Shown piece after piece: positions 2,224 to 64,000 of a stretch of 64,000 nt of DNA. A program made the position numbers and the translations under genes. The stretch is from Bacteroidales bacterium. GTDB taxonomy: Bacteria; Bacteroidota; Bacteroidia; Bacteroidales; UBA4417. The notes under the pieces were generated by a model, which searched no databases, had not been told where the DNA came from, and was given only the letters and a program-made list of their open reading frames with translations. Position 1 is the first letter of the stretch, and each line of letters opens with the position of its first letter. The stretch is taken from positions 8,918 through 72,917 of the forward strand of contig JADJHD010000020.1 in NCBI GenBank assembly GCA_016707705.1, in the 5' to 3' direction.

Positions 2224-2311
2224 AATTACCTAAAAAACTTATGCCTGATTAAATTTCAAGGGTGGCGTACAAGGAAAATAATTCAGTGAGTGTATTACTG
2301 TCAGGAATATT

Positions 2312-2716
2312 TTAGACCAGATTGAACTGATAGAACAGTGCATTAAACTCTTCGAAACTGAAGGGCTTCTGCGCATAACCGTCTACACCTGCCTCAATGC
2401 ATTCCTCCTTGTTAGGATTAGTGGTAATGGCAATGATTGTGGTATGACCGGCCTTTCTGTAATCCTCCTCAATTTTACGAATTTCCTTCACTGCCTGAAG
2501 ACCATCCATTTCCGGCATCTGAATATCCATGATGATGAGATCATACTGTTTATTTTGAAACATCATAATTGCCTCATGTCCATTTTTGGCGACTTCAACC
2601 TCATGGCCTATTCGCCTCAAATAAAAGGAGGTAATTTTTTCAATCATCTCATCATCTTCTGCTAGCAGAATATTTAACTTTTTCATACTGTCAGGCATAT
2701 ATTTTTCAAGTTTCAT
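2312..2716 (-). CDS. Single-domain response regulator (CheY-like receiver)
   Basis: Receiver motifs are present: LLAEDDE, IIMDIQMPEMDG, AITT, AQKPF. The listed 2821 start overlaps the upstream gene. In-frame ATGs at 2716, 2698 and 2686 are more plausible starts. Confidence 0.8.
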   Translation of the reverse strand: MKLEKYMPDSMKKLNILLAEDDEMIEKITSFYLRRIGHEVEVAKNGHEAIMMFQNKQYDLIIMDIQMPEMDGLQAVKEIRKIEEDYRKAGHTTIIAITTNPNKEECIEAGVDGYAQKPFSFEEFNALFYQFNLV

Positions 2717-2741
2717 TAGTTTTTCCTGGATGTTGGGCTGG

Positions 2742-8317: not shown

Positions 8318-8332
8318 TGGCACAATGCTTGA
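8318..8332 (+). promoter_or_regulatory. Sigma-54-like -24/-12 element TGGCAC-N5-TTGA upstream of dnaK
   Basis: Sequence is TGGCACAATGCTTGA. The GG to -12 G spacing is exactly 12 nt, as in the TGGCACG-N4-TTGC consensus. The -12 box reads GA instead of GC. It lies 59 nt upstream of the dnaK ATG. Confidence 0.3.
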
Positions 8333-40869: not shown

Positions 40870-40875
40870 AAGCCT

Positions 40876-43758: not shown

Positions 43759-45344
43759 TTGATTTGATCCAGTTTATAGAGTATGAAAGTAACACCTTGC
43801 TGTTCAACAGTTTTATGGCATTTCCCGCAAGGAAGCTTATTATGCTTTCCATCAAGCTTGAACCTGGTATTGTTGTGGTCAAAGCCATCAGCAGGAAGGA
43901 AGGAGGACTGATTATGGCACCTGCTGCAGTCAGAAGTACCATCAATAACAAATTGATTCTGATGTATATCTTTATGGCATGAACTGCAGGATGTCAATAA
44001 TCCGGAGAATCGCTGGCTGTCATGACCTTTTGCCTGCTTGTTGAAATGACAATCGCGGCAGGTCTTTTTCTGGTGGGCTCCCTTTAAGGCAAAACGTGTG
44101 CTGTCGTGATTAAATTGCACCAAACTCCATTTCGAGGGTGTATGGCAATTCTGGCAACCATTAACAGCATAGTACTTTTCACTGATCAAACCCTTGTGAA
44201 TATCGTCATGGCAATCAGCGCATACCTTTCCTATATTCTTGAATTTCCACTTATCGGTTTTCTTGTGACAAGCAAAACATGGTGTTGCAAGATGCGCGCC
44301 CTGCAAGGGATAAATAAGCTGGTGCTTCTCAATTGAATAGGATGATCCGGGAAATCCATTTACTGAGTGGCATTCGGAACAATCAGGTGAAATTTTATTG
44401 CGTGTGAACTGTCCTTCATGATAATCAACATGGCAATCCCTGCAGTTCTTATGATTCAACGGAGTTGTGAGTTTAAGCTTATGGCAGGATTTGCAGTTAG
44501 TATTCTGGTGTTTACCTTCGAGCTTAAAATCAGTTTTGTTATGATCAAATCCCTTTACTCCGCCACCTACAGCAAATGATTCTGTATTATGGCAATCAGC
44601 ACACTTTTGACCGAACTTATTATTATGGACATCCATATGGCAACTGGAGCAGGAGGAGAACTGCAAACCCTTGAACTCCTGATACTTTTGTCCATTCTTG
44701 TTCGAGATCTTATGACATTCAACGCAAGCCACTGACTGATGCTTGCCTGTCAGCTGATATTTTGCCTTCCGATGATCGAATTTGGGTGCAGGCTTAAATT
44801 TTTCGTTGTTATGGCAATCAGCACAATTCGAAGAGAGCGTCTTTTGATGATAATCGGCATGACAAGCCTGGCAATCGGTTTTCAATCCAAGGTAAGTTGT
44901 TTTCTTAGCTTTTAATTTAACATCCTGAATGAACTCCGGCTTATGACAATCCTCACATTTCTTTTTACTGTGAGCTCCGCTCAGGGTATAACCTGTTAAC
45001 TTATGATCAAATTTTGCTTTATCAAATTTAATGATCTGGAAATTAACCCCATGATGATCATTATGACATGCAGCACATTGTTTCGTTTTAACTCCTGCCG
45101 ACGAATGATACCCTTTGTTCTGGTCAATTCTTGTCTTGATGGCTGTATGACAGGCCAGACATTTTGCATTGGTAACTTTTTCGCCAAGTATATGACATTT
45201 CGTGCAGTTCGACATTCCCTCAAGGTGGGAATGCACTTTTGCAAGATCTCCCGGAGAAATCTGAGCAAGAAGTTTTTGATTAGCAATCAATGAGATGATT
45301 GCAATCAATGTAAACTTTAGGAATTTGCTTAAGATTGATTTCAT
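43737..45344 (-). CDS. Multihaem c-type cytochrome, 20 CxxCH
   Basis: Has a signal peptide. 20 CxxCH motifs in 535 aa, set in repeated F(D/N)H..H...L.G.H....C..CH units (c3/c7-like). Its 3' end overlaps the next gene's start by 22 nt. Confidence 0.9.
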   Translation of the reverse strand: MKSILSKFLKFTLIAIISLIANQKLLAQISPGDLAKVHSHLEGMSNCTKCHILGEKVTNAKCLACHTAIKTRIDQNKGYHSSAGVKTKQCAACHNDHHGVNFQIIKFDKAKFDHKLTGYTLSGAHSKKKCEDCHKPEFIQDVKLKAKKTTYLGLKTDCQACHADYHQKTLSSNCADCHNNEKFKPAPKFDHRKAKYQLTGKHQSVACVECHKISNKNGQKYQEFKGLQFSSCSSCHMDVHNNKFGQKCADCHNTESFAVGGGVKGFDHNKTDFKLEGKHQNTNCKSCHKLKLTTPLNHKNCRDCHVDYHEGQFTRNKISPDCSECHSVNGFPGSSYSIEKHQLIYPLQGAHLATPCFACHKKTDKWKFKNIGKVCADCHDDIHKGLISEKYYAVNGCQNCHTPSKWSLVQFNHDSTRFALKGAHQKKTCRDCHFNKQAKGHDSQRFSGLLTSCSSCHKDIHQNQFVIDGTSDCSRCHNQSSFLPADGFDHNNTRFKLDGKHNKLPCGKCHKTVEQQGVTFILYKLDQIKCEDCHR

Positions 45345-48677: not shown

Positions 48678-49535
48678 ATGGAAAAAGAGAAAAAGTCCGT
48701 AGCAGGTTGGTCAGTGGTAGCAGCTGTGTTCCTTACAGGTTTCAAGCTTATTGTCGGGCTATTTACCGGAAGCTTGGGAATCCTGTCGGAAGCATTGCAT
48801 TCCGGCCTTGACCTGGTTGCAGCTGTTATAACCTATTTTTCTGTTAGAATCTCCGATAAACCAGCAGATATAAAACACCCATACGGACATGGAAAGGTTG
48901 AGAATCTTTCTGCCCTGCTCGAAACATTGCTATTGATAATTACATGCTTTTGGATAATCTATGAAGCTGTTGAGCGACTTGCGTCCGGGAAAACACATAT
49001 CGAGGTTAATATCTGGAGTTATATTGTTGTCGTGACATCCATCGTGGTGGACTATACCAGGTCCCGGGCATTGTACAGAACGGCCCGAAAATACAACAGT
49101 CAGGCTCTTGAAGCGGATGCATTGCATTTCTCAACAGATATCTGGAGCTCTTCCGTAGTATTGATAGGCCTGATCTGCGCCAACTTTGGCTACCATATAG
49201 CTGATCCAATTGCAGCACTAGGCGTTGCAGCAATAGTGCTGGTTGTTTCTTTCAAACTGGGAGAAAGAGCAGTAAATGTACTTTTAGATACAAGTCCAGC
49301 TCCGGCGAGGGAAGAAATAGCTGCTTTATTGGACGACACAACAGGAATATTAGCATACAATGACCTTAAAGTCAGGGTATCAGGTGCTGATACATTTGTA
49401 AATGTAACCCTGAAATTTGAACCTTCACTTAGCCTGGAAGCTGCACACAGGCTTTCTGATACTATTGAAGAACAGATTCATCAAAGGATTGAGCGCTGCA
49501 ATGTTCATATCCATTATGAACCAGCATCAAGTTAA
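48678..49535 (+). CDS. Cation diffusion facilitator (CDF) family divalent-metal efflux transporter
   Basis: Six TM helices with CDF motifs (SEALHSGLDL, HFSTDIWSS) and a C-terminal cytoplasmic domain; 285 aa. Confidence 0.8.
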   Translation: MEKEKKSVAGWSVVAAVFLTGFKLIVGLFTGSLGILSEALHSGLDLVAAVITYFSVRISDKPADIKHPYGHGKVENLSALLETLLLIITCFWIIYEAVERLASGKTHIEVNIWSYIVVVTSIVVDYTRSRALYRTARKYNSQALEADALHFSTDIWSSSVVLIGLICANFGYHIADPIAALGVAAIVLVVSFKLGERAVNVLLDTSPAPAREEIAALLDDTTGILAYNDLKVRVSGADTFVNVTLKFEPSLSLEAAHRLSDTIEEQIHQRIERCNVHIHYEPASS

Positions 49536-49562
49536 ATTTTTCGATAACTAAAATTCTGCAAA

Positions 49563-50270
49563 ATGAGAACTTACGTTTGGAGTCTGCCAACCAGAATATT
49601 TCATTGGTTGCTCGTAATTGGAGTTGTACTGGCTTATGTGCTTGGAGAGGAAGAGGAGCTTTTAAATCTGCATTCCTCCATCGGATATGCCCTGGGTATT
49701 TTAATGCTGTTCCGAATTCTTTGGGGTCTTGCAGGACCTTTATATTCAAGATTCCGGGATTTCCCCATCAGCTTGAAAAATCTGATGTTCTTTTTCAAAA
49801 CCTTAGGTAATAGAAAATCCGGGTTCATTGGTCATAATCCGGCAGCCTCACTGATCATGCTGGCAATTATACTGGATGTTTTGTGCATTGTTGGAACGGG
49901 AATAATAATGATGTCATCAAGAGGAGAAGGTCTCTTCGGAAATTTCACCCCGGGATTTGACCCTGAAACCTATAAGGAATTGCATGAAGTATTTGTCAAC
50001 TTCCTGATAATCATAATTATTATGCACCTTTTGGGACTGGCAACCGACTTCTTTTTCCATCCCAAGGACAGAACAATACTTTCAATGTTCAATGGTTATA
50101 AAAATCTTGAAGGACCTAAAGTAAAAGTGAACAGTATCCAATGGATACTTGCAATAATCGGAATAACTGCAGCATTTACAATAATACCCTATTCACTGCT
50201 AAACCAGCAAATCAATCCTGAAAATAACCAATCTGAACAGTCAGAATTTGAAGAAATGGATGAGGATTGA
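49563..50270 (+). CDS. Cytochrome b (b561 / Ni-Fe-hydrogenase b-type subunit family) membrane protein
   Basis: The N-terminus WSLPTRIFHWLLVIGVVLAYVLG is typical of this family. Four TM helices carry conserved His residues. Confidence 0.7.
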   Translation: MRTYVWSLPTRIFHWLLVIGVVLAYVLGEEEELLNLHSSIGYALGILMLFRILWGLAGPLYSRFRDFPISLKNLMFFFKTLGNRKSGFIGHNPAASLIMLAIILDVLCIVGTGIIMMSSRGEGLFGNFTPGFDPETYKELHEVFVNFLIIIIIMHLLGLATDFFFHPKDRTILSMFNGYKNLEGPKVKVNSIQWILAIIGITAAFTIIPYSLLNQQINPENNQSEQSEFEEMDED

Positions 50271-51409: not shown

Positions 51410-52015
51410 ATGAGCAAACTATTAGGAATACTATCAGTAGCTGGCTTTTGTCTATTGATAGCAACACTTACTTCCTGTCAGGACAATAGTTCAGGTAAGA
51501 AGAACGATGTTGCAGATAATCAAAACGTTAAACAGCTTTCAACTCTTTCAGTCGAAAATCCCGAAGAAATGGAAAAAGCATTGGTTAATGACTCTCTTAA
51601 TACAGAAATAAGGTTAAGGCTAGCAGCCCATTACTATTCGGCCCAAGACCTGAATAAAGCATTATACCATAATTTAACCGTCAACAGGATTTCTCCCGAC
51701 AATATGGCTGCCACTTTTAACCTGGGCAATATTTATTATGATTTGAATCAGAATGAACCGGCTATCCGATTCTATGAGAAATTCCTGACTGTTGAGAAGA
51801 CCAATTGCAACGTTCGCTGCGATCTGGCAACCTGCTATATGAGATTAAACAAGCTGGATAAGGCAGAGAAATTGTTAAAGGAAAATACTTCAATTGATTT
51901 CAATCATCCCCAGTCACATTATAACCTGTCAATGGTACTAAAGCAGATGGGAAAAACTGCAGAAGCTGAAAAGGAAATGAAAATTTATCAGGATATGAGT
52001 TCGAAAAGCAATTGA
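51410..52015 (+). CDS. TPR-repeat lipoprotein
   Basis: Lipobox LTSC. It carries 3-4 TPR-like units (LGNIYYDLNQNEPAIRFYEKFL, LATCYMRLNKLDKAEKLL, NLSMVLKQMGKTAEAEKE). Confidence 0.7.
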   Translation: MSKLLGILSVAGFCLLIATLTSCQDNSSGKKNDVADNQNVKQLSTLSVENPEEMEKALVNDSLNTEIRLRLAAHYYSAQDLNKALYHNLTVNRISPDNMAATFNLGNIYYDLNQNEPAIRFYEKFLTVEKTNCNVRCDLATCYMRLNKLDKAEKLLKENTSIDFNHPQSHYNLSMVLKQMGKTAEAEKEMKIYQDMSSKSN

Positions 52016-52414
52016 TAAGCATCCTGAAATTGATGAGAACAGCCGACTCTCAGAAGCTGTAATAGGAATATAATTTAATCGGAACCATGTCTGCAAAGTA
52101 CCAAGGCCCTTCCGGACATTCTAACATCAAACCAAACCCATCGAACAAAGGGCTATGTTTCTGGCTCAGAGGTTCCTTAATGGGTTAGCTTATTGATGAA
52201 TCATGAAAACTGGTAAACTGCCTTTAAACTGTATCCCAACGATAATTATCCCTCCCTGTTGATCCCTTCAAAGTTCAAGAATGAAATAAACCTGCAATTC
52301 TGCCTGCCAGATAGCATTGGATTCAGCAGTACAACTGCTGCCAAATGGGATTTCACAATAAAACATGAATTATTATTATATTTATCTCGCTAATTGACAA
52401 ACACTTAACCTTTC

Positions 52415-52429
52415 TGGCGATTGATTTGA
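52415..52429 (+). promoter_or_regulatory. Sigma-54-like -24/-12 element TGGC-N7-TTGA upstream of the NHL / 12-haem genes
   Basis: TGGCGATTGATTTGA has correct -24/-12 spacing. It overlaps the listed TTG start at 52426, which argues for the ATG at 52516. Confidence 0.35.
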
Positions 52430-52515
52430 TAAATCGTAGCATGAAATTTGCACAATACCCTGAGCACTATAAAAAACTCATTACTACAAGTGTTTACTGC
52501 CCAACCTCAGAATAC

Positions 52516-53538
52516 ATGATCAAGTCATTGAAAATCATACTGGTAATAGCATTTGTTCTGGGTCTCCAGACACAGTATAGTTTGGCTCAAATAACTGACG
52601 AGCCGCCATTAAATGACTCAATTACTAAGGTTGATATAAAATGGACAGGCACCTGGCCTCCTGAAGACCAACCTGCCAAAGCCAGAAGCCTGAGAAACAG
52701 CTTCAATTCAATTGTGCTGGGAATGCAAACCCCAGAATTGGTAAACCCTGTAGCTATTCTGGCCAATAGTCCGGATGATTATCTGATTCTTGACCAGGCT
52801 AACCGAACAATTTTTCAGATCTCAGGAAAATTGGGTGATATCCCCCAATTTATGAAAAAGAACACCTATGATCTTGCCTCCCTGGTTGGCATTTGCTCAG
52901 GACCTAATTCCAGCGTACTATTCACTGACTCATATTCGGGACAGGTTTTTATAAAAAAGTCAGGTCACAAGCGGCCGGAACTGCTTAATGATTCACTAAA
53001 GTTGCAGCAACCTACAGGGATAGCTTATTTAGAGCAAGAGCATCAGATCTGGGTACTTGAAACCAAGGAGCATTCCATAGCAATACTTGATGAAAGTGGA
53101 AACAGAATTGGGAAAATTGGAAAAAGAGGAAATGCCAAAGGTGAATTTAACTTTCCAACACATATCTGGGCAGATGCTAAAGGCTTGGTTTACATAACCG
53201 ATGCCATGAATTTCAGGGTACAGGTTTTCAATTCGAATGGTGAAGTAGTTTCTGTATTCGGACAGGTTGGAGATGCTTCAGGATTTATGGCAAGGCCTAA
53301 GGGAATAGCAACTGATTCACATGGAAACATTTATGTAGTGGATGCTTTATTCCATACTGTTCAGGTATTTGACCTGAATGGAAGATTGCTCATCAGTTTT
53401 GGAAATCAGGGTCATGGGAACGCTGAGTTCTGGATGCCTACCGGAATTTTTATTGACAAACAGGACCATATTTTTGTCGCAGACACCTATAATTCAAGAG
53501 TACAGATTTTTCAAATAACTCACGAAGACAGAAAATGA
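52516..53538 (+). CDS. NHL-repeat beta-propeller protein (secreted)
   Basis: Signal peptide MIKSLKIILVIAFVLGLQTQYSLAQ. It carries NHL units (GEFNFPTHIWADAKGLVYITDAMNFRVQVF, ARPKGIATDSHGNIYVVDALFHTVQVF, WMPTGIFIDKQDHIFVADTYNSRVQIF). Confidence 0.8.
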   Translation: MIKSLKIILVIAFVLGLQTQYSLAQITDEPPLNDSITKVDIKWTGTWPPEDQPAKARSLRNSFNSIVLGMQTPELVNPVAILANSPDDYLILDQANRTIFQISGKLGDIPQFMKKNTYDLASLVGICSGPNSSVLFTDSYSGQVFIKKSGHKRPELLNDSLKLQQPTGIAYLEQEHQIWVLETKEHSIAILDESGNRIGKIGKRGNAKGEFNFPTHIWADAKGLVYITDAMNFRVQVFNSNGEVVSVFGQVGDASGFMARPKGIATDSHGNIYVVDALFHTVQVFDLNGRLLISFGNQGHGNAEFWMPTGIFIDKQDHIFVADTYNSRVQIFQITHEDRK

Positions 53539-55208
53539 AAAAACTCGAACTGCTAATTATACTGACCATCATAGGCGCTTTATCAACTCAGGCGCAATCT
53601 GTTGTTAACACCAAGCACAACCTTTCCATAAGTGGACCCGGATCTGTTAAGGCAATTTCAGAGGATGAAATCTGTGTGTTTTGCCATACTCCTCATAACA
53701 GCCGTCCTGTTGCTCCACTTTGGAACAGGAATGATCCTGGTACCACCTACACTTTATATGCGAGTTCCACCTTACAGGCTTTGCCCGGACAACCTGATGG
53801 CTCCTCCATTCTGTGTCTTTCATGCCATGACGGCACAGTTGCTCTCGGCAGCGTCATAAGCAGACCTTCCACCATACCTATGAATGGTGGAAATTTTATG
53901 CCTGCCGGTGTAGGAAATCTGGGAAACAACCTTAAAAACGACCACCCCATATCATTCAGTTACACATCCGCCCTGGCTGCAGCTGACGGACAGCTAAAAA
54001 CTCCTGCCAGCATTACACCTCCTGTGAATCTCAGGAATGGCAAGGTCCAATGTACTTCCTGCCATGAACCTCATAAAAACCTGTACTCTGATTTTCTGCT
54101 GGCCAGTACACAAAACTCCAACCTCTGCAATAGTTGCCATCAAAGAACCTACTGGACAACCAGTTCGCATAATACTTCTGTAAAAACATGGAATGGAACC
54201 GCACCGGATCCATGGCCCTATTCACCCTGGACAACAGTAGCTGAAAATGGTTGTGAGAATTGTCATAATCCTCATAATTCAAACAGCACCAAATTGTTGT
54301 TGAAATACTCCACTGAAGAAAACAATTGCCTCGATTGTCACAATGGAAATGCATCTACAAAAAACATTGCGGCTCAGTTTGCCAAGGCATATAAGCACAA
54401 TATTACCAGTTATAATGGTATTCATGACGCCAATGAAGCCGCACAGATAACAAATATGCATTCGGAATGTGTTGATTGCCATAATCCTCATGCAGCAAGA
54501 AACCAGGCTGCAACAGCACCTGCCGTCAACGGATTCCTGCTGGGGGTTAAGGGAATCAATCAGAGTGGCACAGCTGTTAACCCGGCAACCAACTCCTATG
54601 AAATCTGCTACCGCTGCCATGCAGGTAGTGCAGGTGCACCTGCAGCTTCAACCCCAAGGGTCATTGTTCAAAACAATGTCAGGCTTGAATTTGCACCAGG
54701 CAACCCCTCCTATCATTCAGTTGCTGCTGTTGGCGTGAACACTACCGTTCCCAGTCTTATTGCACCCTGGACAACCAGCAGCAGGATGTATTGTACTGAC
54801 TGCCATGCAAGTGATGGCACTGGCTCACCAGCCGGCCCTCATGGCTCCATCTACCCGCATATCCTGAAAAGGCAGAACAATACAACTGATAACACCGCGG
54901 AATCCGCTGCAGCTTATGCCTTATGCTATGGATGTCATAATCGCACCTCCATTCTTGGAGATATATCTTTCAAAGAGCATTCCAAGCATATTGTGGGCGA
55001 AAGAACACCCTGTATTACCTGCCATGACCCGCATGGAATCAGCAGCACCCAGGGAAACAGTACCAATAACTCAAATCTGATAAACTTTTGGACAACAGTT
55101 GTAACCAACAGTTCCGGCGGAATCCGTAGATTTGATGATCAGGGAAATTTTAAGGGAAGATGCTATCTCACCTGCCATGGAGAGAACCATAATCCGCTGA
55201 GTTACTAA
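53535..55208 (+). CDS. Multihaem c-type cytochrome, 12 sites (11 CxxCH + 1 CxxxCH)
   Basis: Has a signal peptide. The CxxCH(T/N/E/D)PH motif recurs. The N-terminal ~200 aa are paralogous to 58510..59130. Its ATGA start overlaps the NHL gene's stop. Confidence 0.88.
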   Translation: MKKLELLIILTIIGALSTQAQSVVNTKHNLSISGPGSVKAISEDEICVFCHTPHNSRPVAPLWNRNDPGTTYTLYASSTLQALPGQPDGSSILCLSCHDGTVALGSVISRPSTIPMNGGNFMPAGVGNLGNNLKNDHPISFSYTSALAAADGQLKTPASITPPVNLRNGKVQCTSCHEPHKNLYSDFLLASTQNSNLCNSCHQRTYWTTSSHNTSVKTWNGTAPDPWPYSPWTTVAENGCENCHNPHNSNSTKLLLKYSTEENNCLDCHNGNASTKNIAAQFAKAYKHNITSYNGIHDANEAAQITNMHSECVDCHNPHAARNQAATAPAVNGFLLGVKGINQSGTAVNPATNSYEICYRCHAGSAGAPAASTPRVIVQNNVRLEFAPGNPSYHSVAAVGVNTTVPSLIAPWTTSSRMYCTDCHASDGTGSPAGPHGSIYPHILKRQNNTTDNTAESAAAYALCYGCHNRTSILGDISFKEHSKHIVGERTPCITCHDPHGISSTQGNSTNNSNLINFWTTVVTNSSGGIRRFDDQGNFKGRCYLTCHGENHNPLSY

Positions 55209-55235: not shown

Positions 55236-56681
55236 ATGAAGTCCTTTAGTTTCAGGGTTAAGATAATTGGAATGATTGTAATAGTGGTAACGCTGTTTTC
55301 GGTTATCTCATTTACAGTATTCAATTTTTACCTGAAGGACAAACTTATCACCCATACAGAGGAGACTTACAATCACATGAATCTCCTTCGTGATCAGTAT
55401 TACTTTACAATCAGCCAGCATGATGGTAAGGTTATCCGGTCCATGCTTAAAAATCTGGAACAGGATCCTGATGTACTCAGAACTTTCCTTATTAATAGCA
55501 AACGGAAACTTGTCTATCCCAAAAACCATAAGACTCCGGGTATTGATTCAGCAAATGTTGAACAGTACTTCAGCAGCCGGAAAGATATATCCATTGTCTC
55601 ATTCAGCAAGGAAAATCCTCCTTATTCCAGAGTTTTCATCCGACTGCAGAACATTGAGTCATGTCAGGAGTGCCATAACCCTTCGACCAAAGCACTTGGT
55701 TTGATTGTCATGGATCTTTCAAACCATGAAACTCAAAGCATAGTAAACCTGACCAAAAATTTCAGCATTTTCTATACCATTGCCATTCTGCTGGCCATCT
55801 TTACAATGGTAGCCTATCTTCACTTTAAGTATATCCGGAAAAGCATGCAGCAATTCCGGGCTGCCATTAGACGAATAAACAAAGGCGATCTGGAAAAACG
55901 TCTTGATATACCTGAAGTAAGGGAACTGGGAAGTCTGGGAAGGGATTTCAATGAAATGATGGCGACATTTGAAAGAACACAGTACCAGCTTCGGGAGTAT
56001 CATGAAAAGGAGCTTCAGAATACGCAGAAACTAGCTACAATAGGTGAAATGTCGGCAAGAATTGCTCACGAAATCAGAAATCCGGTCACCGGAATTGCCA
56101 GAGCAATGGAGGTCATTATAACTGAAATGAAGGATTCAGCCAATAAGCCGATTCTTGAAGAAATCCAGCGACAGGCAAATCGGGTCAATCAGGCAATTAC
56201 CAATCTATTGCGTTTCTCCAGGACAAAGGAACTGATACTGGAAAAAGGGAATATTAATGACATCCTGAAGTCTGTAACCTTCTTCCTTCAAAACCAATCA
56301 CTTGAAAAATCAGTGAGATTTGAGCTTCAAACAGATGATCTGCTTCCAAAAGTTTCATTTGATCACGAACAATTAGAGAATGTAATCATGAATTTGATTA
56401 TCAACTCAATACAATCTATTCAGGAGGAGGGAGTTATCATCATAAAATCATCTTTCATCGATAAAAAGAACAAGGTACTGATCTCTATTTCTGATAATGG
56501 CAAAGGGATTCCGGAGGAAGCAGCAGCTGAAATATTCAAGCCATTTTTTACGACGAGAACTAAGGGAACAGGACTGGGACTTGCAATCAGCAAGGATATT
56601 ATTCAGAAGCACGAAGGAGAAATATGGTTTAAAAATAATGAGGATTCAGGCTGTACCTTCTTCTTAACTTTACCTGCCTGA
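55236..56681 (+). CDS. Sensor histidine kinase with a periplasmic domain carrying one CxxCH (putative c-haem sensor), HAMP, HisKA and HATPase
   Basis: Two TM helices flank a ~145-aa loop containing SCQECHNPS. HAMP follows (INKGDLEKRLDIP), then the H-box ARIAHEIRNP and G-boxes DNGKGIP / GTGLGLAI. Confidence 0.85.
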   Translation: MKSFSFRVKIIGMIVIVVTLFSVISFTVFNFYLKDKLITHTEETYNHMNLLRDQYYFTISQHDGKVIRSMLKNLEQDPDVLRTFLINSKRKLVYPKNHKTPGIDSANVEQYFSSRKDISIVSFSKENPPYSRVFIRLQNIESCQECHNPSTKALGLIVMDLSNHETQSIVNLTKNFSIFYTIAILLAIFTMVAYLHFKYIRKSMQQFRAAIRRINKGDLEKRLDIPEVRELGSLGRDFNEMMATFERTQYQLREYHEKELQNTQKLATIGEMSARIAHEIRNPVTGIARAMEVIITEMKDSANKPILEEIQRQANRVNQAITNLLRFSRTKELILEKGNINDILKSVTFFLQNQSLEKSVRFELQTDDLLPKVSFDHEQLENVIMNLIINSIQSIQEEGVIIIKSSFIDKKNKVLISISDNGKGIPEEAAAEIFKPFFTTRTKGTGLGLAISKDIIQKHEGEIWFKNNEDSGCTFFLTLPA

Positions 56682-56719: not shown

Positions 56720-58132
56720 ATGAAACAGTTAAAAATCCTGGTAATTGATGATGAGAAGCTGATTCGCTGGTCACTCGAAAAACATTTGAGTGCAAAGGGA
56801 TACCAGGCAATTGGAGCGGAATCAGGTGAAGAAGGAATTAAAATATTTGAGCAGAATCATCCTGAAATAGTTCTGGTGGATAATAAATTACCTGGAATTC
56901 AAGGACTTGAAGTAATAAAAAAAATCAAGTCCCTTGATGAAGAGGCTGTTATAGTATTCATGACAGCATATGGTTCCATTGAGACAGCAGTAGAAGCAAT
57001 GAAATCAGGAGCTACTGAATATATCAACAAGCCCTTTGCCTTTGAGGAGGTTGAAGTCATCCTTGATAACATCAAGAACAAGCTAAAGATAATCAAGGAA
57101 ATACAAGTTCTAAAGAGACAACAAAAAGACATAGTAACCTTTGATCACATTATTGGAGAATCAGTTCAGTTTAAGCAAATTGTACACTTAGCCCGAAAAA
57201 TTGCCCGGACTAAAACAACAACGATACTTCTTTTAGGTGAAAGTGGAACCGGAAAGGATATGTTTGCCCATGCTATTCACAATGACAGCACCAGACATGA
57301 TAAGCCATTCATAACAATAAACTGTTCTTCATTACCGGAAACTCTCCTTGAAAGCGAACTGTTCGGACATGAAAAAGGAGCTTTTACAGATGCAAAGCAA
57401 ATGAAAAAGGGATTGTTTGAACTTGCTGAAGGAGGGACTGTATTTCTGGATGAAATTGGTGAAATAAATGCTGCAACACAGATAAAATTGCTTGGTGTGC
57501 TGGAAAACAGGGTAGTAAGACGAATAGGAGGCACCCAGAGTATTCCTGTGGATATACGAATCATCGCCGCAACCAACCGGGATCTGAAAAGAGCAATTGA
57601 TGATAAGTCCTTCAGAGAGGATCTCTATTACAGGCTAAAAGTCTTCCAGATTATCCTGCCACCTCTTCGTGAGAGACGTGATGATATTCCATTAATAGCA
57701 AACCATTTCATTACCCATTACAATAGCCAGTTCCAGAAGAATGTGAGCCATCTGAATGAAGGTGTCCGGGCTATGTTTCTTGAGTATAACTGGCCAGGAA
57801 ACATAAGAGAACTCCGGAACGTAATTGAAAGGGCTGTGATTTTGGAAACTATGACTAGCTTACAACCAGATAACCTTCCAAATGAGATGATTGGAAAAAT
57901 CGAGCAAGCCGATAATTCATCAAAAGAAAATTACACCCAAGGCAACATAGGAACTTCAGGATCAATTGTTGAATTTAATATTCCAAATGAAGGTTTTTCA
58001 TTATATGAAATTGAAAAACAACTCATTATTCATGCTTTGAAAAAATCTGACAATAACCAGACACGGACTTCAAAGATGCTGGGAATTTCAAGAGACACAT
58101 TACGATATAAAATGAAAAAATATAAACTTTAA
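56720..58132 (+). CDS. Sigma-54-dependent response regulator (NtrC family enhancer-binding protein)
   Basis: Receiver domain (VLVDNKLPG), AAA+ domain with GESGTGKD, the GAFTDA variant of GAFTGA, and ESELFGHEKG. A C-terminal Fis-type HTH is present (QTRTSKMLGISRDTLRYKMKKY). Confidence 0.9.
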   Translation: MKQLKILVIDDEKLIRWSLEKHLSAKGYQAIGAESGEEGIKIFEQNHPEIVLVDNKLPGIQGLEVIKKIKSLDEEAVIVFMTAYGSIETAVEAMKSGATEYINKPFAFEEVEVILDNIKNKLKIIKEIQVLKRQQKDIVTFDHIIGESVQFKQIVHLARKIARTKTTTILLLGESGTGKDMFAHAIHNDSTRHDKPFITINCSSLPETLLESELFGHEKGAFTDAKQMKKGLFELAEGGTVFLDEIGEINAATQIKLLGVLENRVVRRIGGTQSIPVDIRIIAATNRDLKRAIDDKSFREDLYYRLKVFQIILPPLRERRDDIPLIANHFITHYNSQFQKNVSHLNEGVRAMFLEYNWPGNIRELRNVIERAVILETMTSLQPDNLPNEMIGKIEQADNSSKENYTQGNIGTSGSIVEFNIPNEGFSLYEIEKQLIIHALKKSDNNQTRTSKMLGISRDTLRYKMKKYKL

Positions 58133-58448
58133 ACACCCTGGGTTATTTCACCCACAATCAATTGGGTCATATAGCCCAGTCTTTATCCATTTTTTTAAGG
58201 GAATCTGCAGAATAATCTTCAAACAGGGTCCAATAACTTTATAAAAGCAATTGCGAATAACCTCTGAAACACCTATTGGCAAAAGAAAAATGCTGAAACG
58301 CCTTTTTCTGCTTTCAAATTCTATTCAAGTCAAAGGTCAAATGCAGCTTTAAAGGCAACAGTCAAAAAACAGCTAATTTTATTTGAACGCTACATACAAT
58401 GTACGTATATAAACCATAAGAACTTAATTGTTAATCACATACATTTTG

Positions 58449-58463
58449 TGGCATATAATTTGA
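58449..58463 (+). promoter_or_regulatory. Sigma-54-like -24/-12 element TGGCAT-N5-TTGA upstream of the tetrahaem gene
   Basis: TGGCATATAATTTGA has correct spacing and lies 47 nt upstream of the ATG at 58510. It sits directly downstream of the sigma-54 activator gene. Confidence 0.4.
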
Positions 58464-58509
58464 AAACAGCAGGCAACAACGCTAGTATCTCTCCTAAAAA
58501 CCTCACACA

Positions 58510-59130
58510 ATGAAAAAAATTAATTGCCTCTTACTCGTTATTGCTTTCGCAACTCTGTCACAATTTGGGTTTGCACAGATTGCAGGAACAGGACATGACT
58601 TTTCAGGTCAGAGCTGGAACACTACAACTGAAATCTGCATTGTTTGCCACACTCCGCACAATGCTGACAATACAGTTGCAAATGCTCCCCTTTGGAATCA
58701 CAGCCTTTCAAATGTTGCTGCCTACTCAATTTATTCAGGTGCAACAATGAATGCAACTGTTGGTCAACCTGATGGAAGTTCAAAACTCTGTCTCAGCTGC
58801 CATGACGGAACTGTAGCTCTTGAAAACTTTGGTGGTGTTACCACCGGAACCAACCCCATGACTGGTAATGCCAATATGGGAACCGATTTAAGCAATGACC
58901 ATCCTGTTTCATTTACCTATGATGCAGCTTTGGCTTCAACTGATGGTGGATTGTTCAATCCAACCACTACTCAGTCAGGTTTGGGTGGAACCATCACAAA
59001 CACCATGCTTATCTCTGGCAAGATGCAATGTTCATCATGCCATGATGTGCACAATAGCGCCAATATCAACGGCCTGCTGCTGAAATCAAACTCAGCCAGC
59101 GCACTTTGCCTTACCTGCCATAACAAGTAA
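58510..59130 (+). CDS. Small secreted tetrahaem c-type cytochrome
   Basis: Has a signal peptide and 4 CxxCH motifs (CIVCHTPHN, CLSCHDG, CSSCHDVHN, CLTCHNK-stop); 206 aa. Confidence 0.88.
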   Translation: MKKINCLLLVIAFATLSQFGFAQIAGTGHDFSGQSWNTTTEICIVCHTPHNADNTVANAPLWNHSLSNVAAYSIYSGATMNATVGQPDGSSKLCLSCHDGTVALENFGGVTTGTNPMTGNANMGTDLSNDHPVSFTYDAALASTDGGLFNPTTTQSGLGGTITNTMLISGKMQCSSCHDVHNSANINGLLLKSNSASALCLTCHNK

Positions 59131-59152
59131 GCTAAGCTTTAAAAAAATCTTT

Positions 59153-59182
59153 AAAAGGGCGAAGTTTCCTTCGCCCTTTTTT
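59153..59182 (+). terminator. Strong rho-independent terminator after the tetrahaem gene
   Basis: GGGCGAAG-TTTC-CTTCGCCC stem-loop flanked by AAAA and TTTTTT. Confidence 0.85.
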
Positions 59183-59254: not shown

Positions 59255-60376
59255 ATGCTCAGAATACTGATCCCTGCTTTAATTGCTGCCATTTTTCTTC
59301 AATCCTGCGCCAAAAAAGTCATTACGGGGCAGGATAGTTTAGTTATTTATCCTTCCCCTCCCGACACTGCAAGGATTCAATTCCTGACCAGGATCAGCAG
59401 CTCTCATGATGTTACAGGTGACCGGAATCCATTTTCTAGGTTAATTCTTGGAGAGGATGAGGATATCGCCATCAATAAACCATATGGTGTTGCAGTGTCT
59501 GGCGATAAGATCTTTATCTGTGATACTTTCATTCATGGACTGGACGTAATTGACATGAAGGATAATTCCTTCGAACAATTCATTCCAACAGGAAAGGGTG
59601 AACTAAAGCAACCTATCAATTGTACAGTGGATAGTCTGGGAAATGTTTACGTAGCAGACTCAGAACGCAAGCAGGTAGTTATTTTTGACAATGAAGGCAA
59701 TTATACTGGAAGCTTCGGAGACCCTGAATCCTTTAAACCTGTTGACGTTGCCGTTAAATATGGCAAAATATGGGTTACCAATCTGGCACAGCATCAGGTA
59801 ATGGTCTTCAGTTGTGATTCTTCACATGAATTACTGTCGGTTTGGCCGGAATTTGATAAATCAAACCCTTCCAGCCTGTTCTCCCCAACAAACCTGTATA
59901 TTTCTGACAACAAGGTTTATGTCACTGACTTTGGGGACTTCAAGATTAAGGAATATACCCTTGACGGTGAATTTATTACTTCATTAGGTACTTACGGACA
60001 AAATCCGGGGCAGTTCGTTCGTCCAAAGGGACTCGCAGTTGATAAGGATGAAAATCTGTACGTAGTTGATGCCGGATTTGAGAATGTTCAGATATTCAAT
60101 CCGGATGGAAAACTACTGATGTTCTTCGGAGGTAATTATAAAGGCCCCGGTGATATGTGGCTTCCGGCAAAAGTGACTGTTGATTACAATCATACTGCCT
60201 ATTTTGAAAAATATGTGGATCCATCCTACCATCTGAAGTATGTTATCCTTGTTTCAAATCAATTCGGCCCCGATAAGTTAAATATCTATGGAGCGATTGA
60301 ACCGGTTCGTCCCGGCCAAAAAGGTGGTTTGAGGAATCTTGAAAAAAAAGGTAAAAGAAAGCCTCCTATGTTCTGA
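59255..60376 (+). CDS. NHL-repeat / six-bladed beta-propeller lipoprotein
   Basis: Lipobox FLQSC. It carries NHL-like units (PYGVAVSGDKIFICD, GNVYVADSERKQVVIFDNEG, RPKGLAVDKDENLYVVDAGFENVQIFNPDG). Confidence 0.75.
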   Translation: MLRILIPALIAAIFLQSCAKKVITGQDSLVIYPSPPDTARIQFLTRISSSHDVTGDRNPFSRLILGEDEDIAINKPYGVAVSGDKIFICDTFIHGLDVIDMKDNSFEQFIPTGKGELKQPINCTVDSLGNVYVADSERKQVVIFDNEGNYTGSFGDPESFKPVDVAVKYGKIWVTNLAQHQVMVFSCDSSHELLSVWPEFDKSNPSSLFSPTNLYISDNKVYVTDFGDFKIKEYTLDGEFITSLGTYGQNPGQFVRPKGLAVDKDENLYVVDAGFENVQIFNPDGKLLMFFGGNYKGPGDMWLPAKVTVDYNHTAYFEKYVDPSYHLKYVILVSNQFGPDKLNIYGAIEPVRPGQKGGLRNLEKKGKRKPPMF

Positions 60377-60412: not shown

Positions 60413-61000
60413 ATGACCTGTAACAACTATTTCCATCACAAACAACTGCACAGATTCCTTTTGATTCTGATGGCCGGGATAATTGTGTTTGGAGTTACAG
60501 CATGTTCTTCATCCTATAAACATAAAGTATTATCATTCTTTTTCGATGGGGTGCCTGAAGTTTCAAGCTCTGAAACTCCTGTAGCTGCATCCGAAACAAA
60601 AGTAGATTCCTCAATTATTGCAACTCCATCCCTTGCAGCAGTAGCAATGAATGTACACCCTCCGTATCAGGATAAACAATGCCATTCATGCCATGATCCC
60701 GGGAAAATGGGCAAACTGATTATAGCCCAGCCGATGGTTTGCTATGCATGCCATGATGACTTCTCAAAAAAATACAAAAACACTCACGGTCCTGTTGAAG
60801 GCGGACAATGTACCATGTGCCATCAGCCACATCAGTCAGGGAATGAGCATCTCCTCACCCGCAAGGGTTCACTTGTTTGCCAGTATTGTCATGAATCTGA
60901 TGACCTGAGTACTATCAGTGAACATCAGGATCCTGAGAATTCTTCCTGTATGACCTGCCATGACCCACATGGAGGCGATAATCCTTATTTTATCAAATAA
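60413..61000 (+). CDS. Pentahaem c-type cytochrome lipoprotein
   Basis: Lipobox GVTAC, a Ser/Thr/Ala-rich linker and 5 CxxCH motifs; 195 aa. Confidence 0.85.
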   Translation: MTCNNYFHHKQLHRFLLILMAGIIVFGVTACSSSYKHKVLSFFFDGVPEVSSSETPVAASETKVDSSIIATPSLAAVAMNVHPPYQDKQCHSCHDPGKMGKLIIAQPMVCYACHDDFSKKYKNTHGPVEGGQCTMCHQPHQSGNEHLLTRKGSLVCQYCHESDDLSTISEHQDPENSSCMTCHDPHGGDNPYFIK

Positions 61001-61002
61001 CC

Positions 61003-62988
61003 ATGAACAGGGCATTCCGACATATAATCGTATTGTTGGCCTTGTGCATTTCCGGCCTGCATGCTTCTGCATATTATGGCAAGTATGGTAAGTCGAAGCA
61101 GAAGCAGTTCTATTTCTGTAAGCTTGACTATCTTACCGGAGAAGTGCGATTCTCGAGTCTCTATCGGGAACAGGAAAGAATTGGTATCAGTATAAATGAA
61201 CACCAGAACAGTAAGTATTTTTCAGGAGGGCTGGTAATCCGATCGAGCAGTTCGATAATCCATAAAAACTTTCTGGTGCTGGACCTTGATGCAGCCTACC
61301 TGCCTGAATCCAATAAGGACAACTTTTTAGTCATACCAGACCAGTCAGAGGTTCGATCAACTAAAAAGCTTGACCTCACAGCATCCTTCTTCAAGGAAAA
61401 AGACTTCAACCTTAGTTTATTCGGCAACTACGATGAAAGCTATTCCACCCGCGAAAACCTGACCAATATACGCACCAATAACCAGCACCTGGGGGCATCA
61501 ATGGGTTATAACAACCTTTTTGTTCCGTTCAGGCTTGATGTTCATCAGCGTTTCTGGAATGAAGAAGAAATTGGTGGAAGCCGATCATACAAATTTGACC
61601 AGTTCTCAGTCGGCGCCACTTTTAACAAATCCTTCAGGCAGTCCGACCGTTCCGAACTAAGACTCAACCACGACAGGAATATCAGCATCAATCAGTATCA
61701 ATTCAGAATTGCCAATACTTTGAATACTCTGGATTTCCACAACTCCATACACCTCGACAAGGGCCAGAGATACAATCTTATAACAAGTGTCAATGGAATC
61801 GATCAATTCGGGAATCTTAACATGCGCAGGATTCAAGCCATGGAATTGTTGAATTTCAAGCTGTCAGAAAATCTGAATTTCCTCACAAATTACACATTCC
61901 AGTCTACACGTCAGGATTCAGCAAGGCTAAAGCAGAATGGTTTCAGTACAACCCTTCAGCATACACTCTTCAGCAGTCTGCGTACTTCAATTCATTTCGA
62001 CTATGACAGATTGAAACATACCGCTTTCAGGGAAGTAAACAGAAAAACCGGAATCGAATTGAACTATACCAAGAAAATTCCCGGAGGCCATCTTAACATT
62101 GTATACAAACTTGATACCTACAGGCAGGATCACACATCCGGTTCGATTGATCTTAGAACTCTTGGTGAAGAATACACCCTCTCAGATAACCGGATTACAT
62201 TGTTGAAACTTCCTTATATTATTCTTAGTTCTGTTGTTGTCAGGGATATTTCCGGAACATTAATTTATGAAGCCGGACTTGATTATATGCTCATCCAGCA
62301 AAATACCTTTATCGAAATCAGGCGAATTCCGGGCGGTGCTATTCCGAATGAGGGAATTGTTCTGGTGGATTACACTGCTACCCGACCCGGAGATTACAGG
62401 TATGATGCAATTACCAATGCAGTTAATGTAAACCTGTATCTGTTTAAAAACCATCTGTCAGTCTATTACAGGTTCTCGAATCAGGATTACTTCGGACTTC
62501 ATACCACTGATTTTGTGACCCTGAATTACTTTACACAGAACATGGCCGGACTTAGGCTTGATTTAGGTGTTGTAAGTTTGGGAGCGGAGCATGAAGACTA
62601 TCAAAGCTCAATTCTCCCCTACCGCATGACACGTTATTATGTAAACTATCAGCAAAACCTTGGTGAACGGCTAATATTGCTCCTGAATGGAAATTTGCAG
62701 GATTATGTAATGCTAAATGATGACGAATCAAGAAATCAACGATATATTGATGTATCCGGCAAGGTATCCTACAATGTTTTCCGCCAGACCAATCTGAATA
62801 TGGATATTATGTACAGGAACCAATCCGGAAGGGGAATTGACCTTGACTTGTTTACTGGCCGCGCCGAGGTAACCTCTACTATAAACAGGCTATACCTTGC
62901 GGGTGGTGTGGAAGTTTACAGACGAAATTACATTGGTGAAAAAATCAATTTCAAGGGAGCCTATATCAAGCTTATCCGTAAATTCTGA
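61003..62988 (+). CDS. Predicted outer-membrane beta-barrel protein (porin-like partner)
   Basis: Has a signal peptide, pervasive amphipathic beta-strand patterns and no Cys-haem motifs. The C-terminus ...YIKLIRKF ends in Phe. It is separated from both flanking cytochrome genes by 2 nt. Confidence 0.65.
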   Translation: MNRAFRHIIVLLALCISGLHASAYYGKYGKSKQKQFYFCKLDYLTGEVRFSSLYREQERIGISINEHQNSKYFSGGLVIRSSSSIIHKNFLVLDLDAAYLPESNKDNFLVIPDQSEVRSTKKLDLTASFFKEKDFNLSLFGNYDESYSTRENLTNIRTNNQHLGASMGYNNLFVPFRLDVHQRFWNEEEIGGSRSYKFDQFSVGATFNKSFRQSDRSELRLNHDRNISINQYQFRIANTLNTLDFHNSIHLDKGQRYNLITSVNGIDQFGNLNMRRIQAMELLNFKLSENLNFLTNYTFQSTRQDSARLKQNGFSTTLQHTLFSSLRTSIHFDYDRLKHTAFREVNRKTGIELNYTKKIPGGHLNIVYKLDTYRQDHTSGSIDLRTLGEEYTLSDNRITLLKLPYIILSSVVVRDISGTLIYEAGLDYMLIQQNTFIEIRRIPGGAIPNEGIVLVDYTATRPGDYRYDAITNAVNVNLYLFKNHLSVYYRFSNQDYFGLHTTDFVTLNYFTQNMAGLRLDLGVVSLGAEHEDYQSSILPYRMTRYYVNYQQNLGERLILLLNGNLQDYVMLNDDESRNQRYIDVSGKVSYNVFRQTNLNMDIMYRNQSGRGIDLDLFTGRAEVTSTINRLYLAGGVEVYRRNYIGEKINFKGAYIKLIRKF

Positions 62989-62990
62989 CC

Positions 62991-63908
62991 ATGAACAACT
63001 CTTCATTTCTATATATCCTCCTGCCTTTCCTTTCTCTTCTGATGTTTTGGGAAAGCAGCAGGCTGCCTGAAAATGAATCTGGCAGAAATCCGATCAGCGC
63101 ACCCACCCAGTGCATAGATTGCCACAGTGATCTGATTGAAAGCCCCAATCAGCATAAACCTGCCGCTGAATCCTGTGGAAAATGCCACACCGTTGACTTT
63201 GTAGCTCACACCGAAAATGGTGCAAGAGGTCTTAATCTGAATTTTGAAATGCCTTTTCTTTGCCTTAATTGTCATGAGGATACCAAACAGAGCATCGAAA
63301 CAGTAAAGACACCTCACCTTGCTCTAAATACTGAAAAGAAATGTGCCAACTGCCATTCCCCCCATTCATCCGATCAAAAAGCCCTTCTGGTCTCTGAAGA
63401 GAAAAAACTATGCCTTTCCTGCCACAACAAAGATGTCACACTCGAAGGCAAACCTGCCGTAAACATCAAGAAACTGTTGTCAGTCAGCAAGGTAGTTCAC
63501 CCACCTGTTGAAAAAGGATGCAAGGTATGTCATCAGCCTCATGGTTCCGATAATAATTACCTGCTGATCAGTGCTTTTCCACGGACAAAATATCTGCCTG
63601 CTGTTCAGGACTCCTTTGCCTTTTGCTGGGAATGCCACGACAGCGATCTGCTCTCACTAGAAAAGACAACCACCTCCACTAATTTCAGGGATGGAGACCG
63701 CAACCTGCATTTTGTGCATATGAATGGAAAAAGGTCAAGATCATGCATAATGTGCCATAACGTACATGCAGCTCCCAATGAACATCTTATTGAGGATAAG
63801 GTTAAGTACGGCAAATGGGAACTGCCGATTAAATACACTGCAAATGAAAAGGGTGGTTCATGTTTCCCTGGATGCCATTCAGCAAAGCAATACAGCAGAC
63901 CTGAATGA
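62991..63908 (+). CDS. Multihaem c-type cytochrome, 9 sites (8 CxxCH + 1 CxxxCH)
   Basis: Hydrophobic N-terminus. Motifs are CIDCH, CGKCH, CLNCH, CANCH, CLSCH, CKVCH, CWECH, CIMCH and CFPGCH; 305 aa. Confidence 0.88.
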   Translation: MNNSSFLYILLPFLSLLMFWESSRLPENESGRNPISAPTQCIDCHSDLIESPNQHKPAAESCGKCHTVDFVAHTENGARGLNLNFEMPFLCLNCHEDTKQSIETVKTPHLALNTEKKCANCHSPHSSDQKALLVSEEKKLCLSCHNKDVTLEGKPAVNIKKLLSVSKVVHPPVEKGCKVCHQPHGSDNNYLLISAFPRTKYLPAVQDSFAFCWECHDSDLLSLEKTTTSTNFRDGDRNLHFVHMNGKRSRSCIMCHNVHAAPNEHLIEDKVKYGKWELPIKYTANEKGGSCFPGCHSAKQYSRPE

Positions 63909-64000
63909 AATTGAATCATTTTATAATTGAACAAGGCTTTTATAATCCTGTTTTATTTTAACTCGTTAACCCAGAATGTAGAACAAAATGCTGATTCCCG

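Follow-up and report, generated by a model that had tools for sequence, protein, structure and literature searches.

Cytochrome filaments described so far and the locus under study

To our knowledge, the cytochrome nanowires of known structure come only from Desulfuromonadia and from two archaea. Here we describe a locus from a Bacteroidales bacterium whose central gene encodes a relative of one of these filament subunits, the tetrahaem cytochrome OmcE. The locus lies in a stretch of 64,000 nucleotides, hereafter the window (GenBank assembly GCA_016707705.1, contig JADJHD010000020.1, positions 8,918 to 72,917 of the forward strand; all coordinates given below are those of the window). From its matches in the PDB, an alignment with the solved proteins and a family profile, the 206-residue tetrahaem c-type cytochrome encoded at 58510..59130 on the + strand is almost certainly a member of the OmcE family, encoded within an omcE-type gene cluster.

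The closest described systems are those of Geobacter sulfurreducens, whose OmcE filament was deposited as 7TFS (Wang et al. 2022; PMC12954529), and of Desulfuromonas soudanensis WTL, in which DSOUD_2954 forms bundled filaments (bioRxiv 10.1101/2025.10.22.684050). In the OmcE fold, stacked and T-shaped haem pairs alternate along the chain of haems. According to Petersen et al. 2025, the haems of OmcE are coordinated by four CXXCH motifs and four additional conserved His residues, and the omcE clusters carry a signature formed by multihaem cytochromes, beta-propeller lipoproteins and a large beta-barrel. In that work the clusters were assigned to Thermodesulfobacteriota, Pseudomonadota, Aquificota, Campylobacterota and Nitrospirota, with Bacteroidota unmentioned; it was also noted that the bundling loops of the D. 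soudanensis protein are kept in no homologue, and the secretion, initiation and termination of the nanowires were posed again as a question.

Homology of the cytochrome to OmcE

When the 206-residue protein was compared with the PDB using phmmer, 7TFS_A (E=4.7e-27) and 9YUQ_N (E=3.7e-26) were matched over the full length (from residue 3 or 10 to residue 206), and beyond these two entries no match had an E-value below 0.27. A profile built from 55 clade members retrieved 7TFS (E=6.2e-39) and 9YUQ (E=9e-37), and only these two at E<=10. An initial annotation of this DNA, made from the letters alone, had proposed aligning the protein with OmcE, OmcS and the archaeal filament cytochromes, and for OmcE the outcome is this full-length match, by sequence as well as by profile. 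The 9YUQ entry describes a 218-residue "putative multiheme cytochrome c" with 16 chains; from this chain number and length we infer that it corresponds to the bundled OmcE filament from D. soudanensis reported by Petersen et al. 2025. When five sequences were aligned, the window protein showed an identity of 41% with Geobacter OmcE and of 37% with the Desulfuromonas protein (9YUQ), as compared with 40% between the two solved filament subunits; by this measure, the window protein is about as close to Geobacter OmcE as is the second solved filament former. The eight Cys, the four His of the CXXCH motifs and the four distal His are invariant in this alignment and in the 55 clade members.

The protein begins with a signal peptide, MKKINCLLLVIAFATLSQFGFAQ, that spans residues 1 to 22/23, and has exactly four CXXCH motifs, i.e., CIVCH, CLSCH, CSSCH and CLTCH, that start at residues 43, 94, 174 and 200. 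The conserved distal His are H29, H50, H131 and H181, and the ninth His of the protein is H64, within the motif PLWNH. The initial annotation had recognized a secreted protein of 206 residues with four haem sites, and the open reading frame, the signal peptide and the four CXXCH motifs were all verified; likewise, the motifs GHDF, CIVCHTPHN, SKLCLSCHDG, QCSSCHDVHN and ALCLTCHNK-stop are present, as it had noted. Pfam and NCBIfam give only generic similarities for this protein (Paired_CXXCH_1 and cytochrome c7, with a DmsE-like match below the cut-off). An inspection by eye spotted no copy of the O-glycosylation motif of Bacteroidetes, D-(S/T)-(A/I/L/V/M/T).

Geobacter sulfurreducens OmcE is also a tetrahaem protein of about 200-230 residues with a Sec signal peptide, it aligns with the window protein from end to end, and it presents the four CXXCH motifs and the distal His in the same order (N-terminal xHD/N, CHTPH, NDHP and CHxxH). 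In both proteins the chain stops two residues past the final CXXCH, and both genes adjoin those for an NHL beta-propeller lipoprotein, multihaem cytochromes and a large barrel. They differ in that the host belongs to Thermodesulfobacteriota in one case and to Bacteroidota in the other, in that Geobacter OmcE has PLWNR where the window protein has PLWNH, and in that the loop between the second CXXCH and NDHP is shorter in the window protein; furthermore, the filament has been observed for Geobacter OmcE, whereas the window protein is known from its sequence alone. With DSOUD_2954 the window protein shares the same eight Cys and eight His, as well as a minimal type of cluster that lacks glycosylation genes; on the other hand, the residue that follows WN is Arg in DSOUD_2954 and His in the window protein.

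Comparison with OmcS and archaeal filament cytochromes

The initial annotation had found the motif spacing of the protein to be similar to that of OmcS, and this part of its proposal did not hold. OmcS (6EF8; the OmcS sequence used for the comparison was 100% identical to this entry) did not appear at E<=10 in the PDB search, either with the sequence or with the profile, and the same is true for the archaeal cytochromes PcECN (8E5F) and AvECN (8E5G); OmcZ was not matched in these searches either. What relates the window protein to OmcS is a local likeness in the motifs CxxCHxxHN and C-terminal ALCxxCH, detected by BLASTP as a paired-CXXCH match of 48 residues (E=5e-4) and by hhalign, using the profile of the window protein, with a probability of 78% over 37 columns. 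This match is out of register, given that it places haems 3-4 of the window protein against haems 1-2 of OmcS, and the two proteins differ in size, with six haems in 407 residues for OmcS and four haems in 206 residues for the window protein. The OmcS family (six CXXCH, about 400 residues) was ruled out on these grounds, that is, the haem number, the length and the lack of collinear similarity. Therefore, a reading in which the window protein is OmcS-like, or homologous to the archaeal filament cytochromes, is refuted at the level of sequence and retains a negligible probability.

The haem arrangement and ligand geometry are nevertheless common to OmcS and OmcE, which show no sequence similarity (eLife 2022), and published work indicates that the first four haems of OmcS superpose on those of OmcE. 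OmcS also forms filaments in which His residues of one subunit coordinate haems of another, and it carries the local CxxCHxxH motif. This shared ligand geometry would account for the motif-level impression of the initial annotation. Its core idea, a candidate subunit of an OmcE/OmcS-type filament in an organism of the FCB group, stands with regard to the homology with OmcE, the ligands, the cluster and the Bacteroidota host, and fails with regard to OmcS. Judged from these sequence comparisons, the candidacy of the protein as a subunit of this kind appears much better supported than the low confidence originally given to it.

Organization of the gene cluster

The cluster runs on the + strand and includes all the components of the omcE signature mentioned above, with a lipobox in one of its two propellers. 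At 52426..53538 it encodes an NHL-repeat beta-propeller (Pfam NHL 1e-24), syntenic in relatives, whose likely true start is the ATG at 52516 and which has a signal peptide and no lipobox. This gene is followed by a 12-haem cytochrome (53535..55208; 11 CXXCH and one CX3-4CH) with an N-terminal OmcE module, a sensor histidine kinase (55236..56681; HAMP, HisKA and HATPase domains, and one periplasmic CXXCH) and an NtrC-type response regulator and sigma-54 enhancer-binding protein (56720..58132; Sigma54_activat 6e-69, AtoC/NtrC-like in NCBIfam). Downstream of the OmcE homologue are located a second NHL-repeat beta-propeller, which is a lipoprotein with the lipobox FLQSC (59255..60376), a five-haem lipoprotein cytochrome with the lipobox VTAC (60413..61000), a large outer-membrane beta-barrel of 661 residues that ends in Phe (61003..62988; recognized from its AlphaFold2 model, with no Pfam match) and a cytochrome with eight CXXCH and one CX3-4CH (62991..63908) that is DmsE-family-like, below the family cut-off.

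Several of these neighbours have counterparts in Geobacter. For this comparison we used the omcE locus of G. hydrogenophilus (L002), found by scanning genomes with Geobacter OmcE. The NHL lipoprotein encoded beside omcE in that locus is matched by propeller 1 (BLASTP E=9e-43) and by propeller 2 (E=8e-25), the five-haem lipoprotein cytochrome matches the cytochrome G_6312 of a Geobacter omcE cluster (E=5e-19), and the cytochrome at 62991..63908 matches a nine-haem cytochrome (L002 6312-7367) with E=1.6e-53 and 37% identity over 267 residues, and is likely to be orthologous to the cytochrome with nine haems in the Geobacter omcE cluster. Unlike the Geobacter clusters, the window shows no glycosyltransferase block after these genes, with the window ending at 64000; its barrel belongs to a different subfamily, and it adds the haem-sensor kinase, the sigma-54 activator and the 12-haem protein with its OmcE module. 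The whole gene order is kept in the Bacteroidales metagenome-assembled genome (MAG) GCA_963853285.1 and in several metagenome loci. In the locus of this MAG (L083) a large TPR gene follows the cluster; at 132-3287 of the same locus, between the TPR gene and the first NHL gene, there is a ResB-CcsB fusion of 1051 residues (system II maturation/haem attachment), which is absent at the corresponding position of the window (52015-52426). Geobacter omcE clusters are likewise preceded by resB and ccsB.

The AlphaFold2 model of the 661-residue protein shows a beta-barrel with about 30 strands and has a predicted local distance difference test (pLDDT) score of 88.7; Foldseek retrieved LptD, the FimD usher and MtrB for it, the best TM-score being 0.46 with MtrB. 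A large barrel gene placed beside genes for DmsE/MtrA-like multihaem cytochromes is also found in the MtrAB/MtrCAB porin-cytochrome conduits; however, the window cytochromes fall below the family cut-off, the window barrel has about 30 predicted strands and an inserted domain, and its MtrB-type likeness is at the level of a generic large-barrel fold. A relationship was also found with the barrels encoded immediately after OmcE homologues in Acidobacteriota and Nitrospirota, whose family aligns with that of the window barrel with an hhalign probability of 96.9% (E=1.3e-10, 346 columns). In these loci (MAG loci L025, L028, L029, L039 and L046) the cytochrome next to the homologous barrel is of the same 'WNH' subtype, and two of them (L028 and L029) also encode a 12-haem protein with an N-terminal OmcE module. 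These loci are also uncharacterised, and the layout of kinase, activator, promoter and terminator is established only for the Bacteroidota and Chlorobi-type loci.

Putative transcriptional control of the cytochrome gene

As the initial annotation had pointed out, the cytochrome gene stands alone between a sigma-54-like element and a strong terminator; both elements are present, at the two ends of the region that it had delimited, and the layout is kept in relatives. The sigma-54-type -24/-12 element, TGGCATATAATTTG, is located at 58449..58462 (+ strand), 61 nt ahead of the ATG; it reads TGGCAT-N5-TTGA, with the GG kept. The motif TGGCAY-N5-TTG recurs 57-94 nt upstream of the ATG in 15 loci whose flanks otherwise diverge, and the base that follows the -12 TTG is variable among relatives, being C in two of the relatives listed. 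This motif is not enriched in the window, where there are three matches versus 2.3 expected; since this count is at chance level, the sigma-54 assignment rests on the conservation in relatives. The two other matches in the window are at 8318-8331 and 21184-21197.

Two putative upstream activator sites precede the promoter. Site 1, TGGGTTATTTCACCCA, is an exact TGGGT-N6-ACCCA palindrome at 58139..58154 that begins 7 nt past the stop codon of the sigma-54 activator gene, and site 2, TGGGTCATATAGCCCA, with one mismatch, is at 58163..58178, 24 bp from site 1. Allowing for one mismatch at most, the palindrome occurs seven times in the window versus 1.8 expected, a number that none of 100 shuffles reached. 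The paired 16-bp palindromes are kept in 13 of the 15 loci, where 23-24 bp separate the two sites and the pair precedes the sigma-54 element by 110-410 nt. The predicted cognate activator is encoded directly upstream, and consists of receiver, AAA+ and HTH_8 domains.

At the other end of the gene, the intrinsic terminator (59153..59182, + strand) consists of the stem GGGCGAAG/CTTCGCCC at 59157-59176 (arms 59157-59164 and 59169-59176, loop TTTC) followed by a run of six T (59177-59182). The hairpin has a predicted energy of -19.3 kcal/mol (z = -4.3), and none of 200 shuffles folds as well; a hairpin with a T-run, GC-rich and with stem sequences that differ, was observed at a distance of 22-37 nt past the stop codon when the window and 21 relatives were scanned, in 17 of these 22 loci. 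Given a strong terminator at 59157-59182, the transcript would be essentially monocistronic, and the subunit could be made in large excess over the products of the downstream assembly genes.

The kinase encoded at 55236..56681 has a single periplasmic CXXCH (residues 143-147) that is kept in the six orthologues checked (6/6), and it is probably a haem-c redox sensor. From this gene order and these sites, we infer that a haem-based redox sensor drives the sigma-54 transcription of a single-gene unit. In this pathway, the kinase would sense the redox state of the periplasm and phosphorylate the NtrC-type activator (56720..58132), which in turn would bind the two palindromes (58139-58178) and open the sigma-54 promoter at 58449.

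Tandem modules and the 12-haem paralogue

An exhaustive search of representative proteins from public metagenomes revealed proteins in which two to five OmcE modules are arranged in tandem (P0121, of 1400 residues and five modules, P0122, P0123, P0125 and P0126); some of these continue into immunoglobulin-like or propeller-like domains. The spacer between modules, from the last CXXCH His to the next 'HD' His, has 6-9 residues, with one case of 18. In the free window protein, the C-terminal tail NK (2 residues) and the N-terminal arm of the mature protein, QIAGTG (6 residues), add up to 8, and the tail extends exactly two residues past the last CXXCH in 125 of 134 single-module relatives. Together, the fusions and the fixed tail point, though indirectly, to a head-to-tail packing of the subunits, and the tandem proteins look like wire segments that are covalently joined.

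A comparison among OmcE homologues bears on the role of H64. At this position there is Arg in the Geobacter-type homologues, Lys in the betaproteobacterial ones and His in the clade of the window protein, and the His of the window type is kept in every module of the tandem fusions. Since H64 aligns with Arg and Lys, it is probably a basic contact and not an iron ligand. The Arg, His and Lys subtypes after W-N/D (loci L001-L123) track the barrel groups, i.e., Geobacter-type, Bacteroidota/Acidobacteriota/Nitrospirota and betaproteobacterial, and this correspondence suggests that subunit and barrel co-evolve.

The 12-haem protein at 53535..55208 had been proposed in the initial annotation to be a paralogue over its first part, and its first 204 residues are in fact 44% identical to the 206-residue protein, with NDHPISFSY versus NDHPVSFTY. 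This region (residues 1-204) matches 7TFS with E=7.4e-39, and an extension with eight haems follows it. Proteins with an N-terminal OmcE module and about 7-8 further haems adjoin OmcE homologues in several phyla (Acidobacteriota, beta- and gammaproteobacteria, Desulfobulbaceae and Myxococcota; loci that include L028, L029, L033, L045, L047, L048, L054, L057 and L072), and none was present in the Geobacter-type loci examined. Several of the Pseudomonadota matches listed as OmcE homologues are in fact the N-terminal module of 12-haem-type proteins. These proteins keep an N-terminal arm with the sequence T-K/R-H-N-L-S (TKHNLS in the 12-haem protein of the window) and, across phyla, a conserved His located 9-11 residues after the last CXXCH of the module (His218, within SSHNTS, in the 12-haem protein of the window), a spacing equal to that between fused modules. 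A role of the 12-haem protein as a filament-end adaptor is put forward here as a hypothesis only. According to this hypothesis, the His of the arm (TKHNLS), being free, could insert into the terminal subunit, and the His located 9-11 residues after the fourth CXXCH would occupy in cis the position otherwise taken by the arm of the next subunit. Polymerisation would thus end, leaving the filament connected to the barrel conduit and to eight additional haems.

Possible filament formation and alternative readings

Taking together the relationship with OmcE, the complete set of ligands and the composition of the cluster, it is somewhat probable that the 206-residue cytochrome forms filaments. In such a case, the tetrahaem subunit would be exported by Sec, would receive its haems and would then be passed to, or anchored at, the 661-residue barrel with the help of the NHL propellers; subunits would polymerise head to tail as in OmcE, each supplying a His that completes the ligation of a haem in the adjacent subunit. 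In this way an insulated wire of haems would form that serves extracellular electron transfer and is fed by the other cytochromes of the cluster, and the 12-haem protein, with its own OmcE module, may join the end of the filament to the conduit. The tandem proteins with two to five modules found in metagenomes could be regarded as covalently 'pre-polymerised' wire segments. The full scheme, with Bacteroidota nanowires under the control of a haem-c kinase and sigma-54, the 12-haem protein as a terminator or base adaptor and the tandem proteins as pre-polymerised segments, is considerably more speculative, and we regard it as doubtful.

Several observations weigh against filament formation. Polymerisation, extracellular location and high expression of the cytochrome are all deduced from sequence features, and what cytochrome filaments do in the physiology of the cell is in turn disputed (PMC11077965). 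The OmcE-like family is very large, with at least 5208 representative clusters at E<=1e-3 and 512 at E<=1e-30, so that membership by itself is no proof of filament formation, and Petersen et al. 2025 pointed out that OmcE-like tetrahaem cytochromes occur very widely and are not necessarily all nanowires, those with the right context being the candidates. The AlphaFold2 model of the cytochrome, obtained without haems from an alignment of 55 sequences, has a pLDDT of 45.6 that is too low for use, a value that is unsurprising for a coil-rich multihaem protein modelled in this way. The comparison of the 661-residue barrel with the barrel of the Geobacter omcE cluster gave nothing by BLASTP and a probability of 6.8% by hhalign; the two are linked only transitively, through the barrels from Acidobacteriota and Nitrospirota, which match the Geobacter-type barrel of 750 residues (94.4%) and the betaproteobacterial barrel (96.0%). 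In the promoter, the -12 part is TTGA and not the canonical TTGC. Finally, the nine His of the window protein equal the number predicted by Petersen et al. 2025 for a non-polymerising 'stopper', which would have nine His and four haems, be OmcE-like and ideally be encoded in the cluster.

Part of this evidence suits a monomeric tetrahaem carrier, periplasmic or exposed at the cell surface, that would exchange electrons with a porin-cytochrome conduit, made up of the barrel and its multihaem neighbours, without forming a polymer. The size of the family, the caution expressed by Petersen et al. 2025, the generic character of the Pfam and NCBIfam matches and the fact that MtrB is the best structural match of the barrel are all in line with such a carrier, and with nine His all the haems could in principle be ligated within a single chain. 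Nevertheless, the protein is no more distant from Geobacter OmcE than is the second proven filament former, it keeps all the ligands, the context of its gene is of the nanowire type, and the ninth His, replaced by Arg or Lys in other subtypes, is an unlikely ligand. The tandem fusions and the fixed tail of two residues point to head-to-tail packing, and a single gene insulated by its promoter and terminator suits a subunit made in excess; we thus consider the monomeric carrier rather unlikely, albeit the most serious of the alternatives. It is improbable that the protein acts as a cap, stopper or minor subunit of a polymer formed by another OmcE-like protein, or that the 12-haem protein is the functional unit. 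The stopper prediction quoted above agrees with the composition of the window protein, and the module of the 12-haem protein is nearer to Geobacter OmcE (E=7.4e-39) than the 206-residue protein is (E=4.7e-27). However, the 206-residue protein is encoded by the sole free-standing gene of OmcE size in the cluster, which has its own strong promoter and terminator, and the 12-haem protein would be unable to extend a homopolymer C-terminally because it is fused there to eight more haems. The equation of nine His with a stopper is also weakened by the exchange of the extra His for Arg or Lys, which is subtype-wide, the His being present in every module of the tandem fusions.

Distribution and implications

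Bacteroidales and Lentimicrobiaceae-like anaerobes are usually scored as fermenters, and their phylum is abundant in sediments, digesters and wastewater. The assignment of the window to this phylum agrees with its SusC/SusD pair and its type IX secretion sorting domains, and the nearest named homologues come from Bacteroidales, Lentimicrobiaceae, Bacteroidota, Chlorobi-labelled MAGs and Lutibacter. The clade has more than 100 members whose identity to the 206-residue protein exceeds 60%, and the clade-specific barrel has 93 matches that include proteins named as Lentimicrobiaceae, Bacteroidales, Lutibacter (WP_457618283.1) and Chlorobi. To judge from these predicted proteins, Bacteroidota have conserved the complete omcE-type cluster, which is widespread among them. 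Our survey of the literature on OmcE together with Bacteroidota or Ignavibacteria, in which Wang et al. 2022 and Baquero et al. 2023 were not covered, found no report of this cluster, and no isolate or proteomic data on an OmcE-type cluster in Bacteroidota were found in it; a passage of PMC6344600 mentions in general terms putative porin-cytochrome genes and genes for surface multihaem cytochromes in Bacteroidetes MAGs. The OmcE-type cluster of Bacteroidota is a known kind of system, with notable variant features, in a phylum from which it was so far unreported.

If the cytochrome does form filaments, long-range extracellular electron transfer would extend to Bacteroidota. The cluster would also offer a defined regulatory switch, formed by the haem-sensor kinase, the sigma-54 activator, the two palindromes and the promoter, as well as a candidate for a filament-end or adaptor protein, and the natural tandem fusions would report on the geometry of the interface between subunits. 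Conversely, if the protein proved to be monomeric, it would mark a limit of the prediction of nanowires from sequence, as an identity of 41% together with the cluster context would be insufficient.

Other multihaem genes in the window

A second multihaem cluster is located on the - strand of the window at 39253-45344. It encodes a protein of 535 residues with 20 CXXCH motifs (43737-45344), a protein of 960 residues with 36 CXXCH motifs (40876-43758), and a protein of 538 residues (39253-40869) that has no Pfam match and ends in ...LSKRF, like an outer-membrane barrel. Between both cytochrome clusters, at 48678-50270, there are genes for a cation-efflux (CDF) transporter and for a protein similar to the b-type cytochrome subunit of Ni/Fe hydrogenases.

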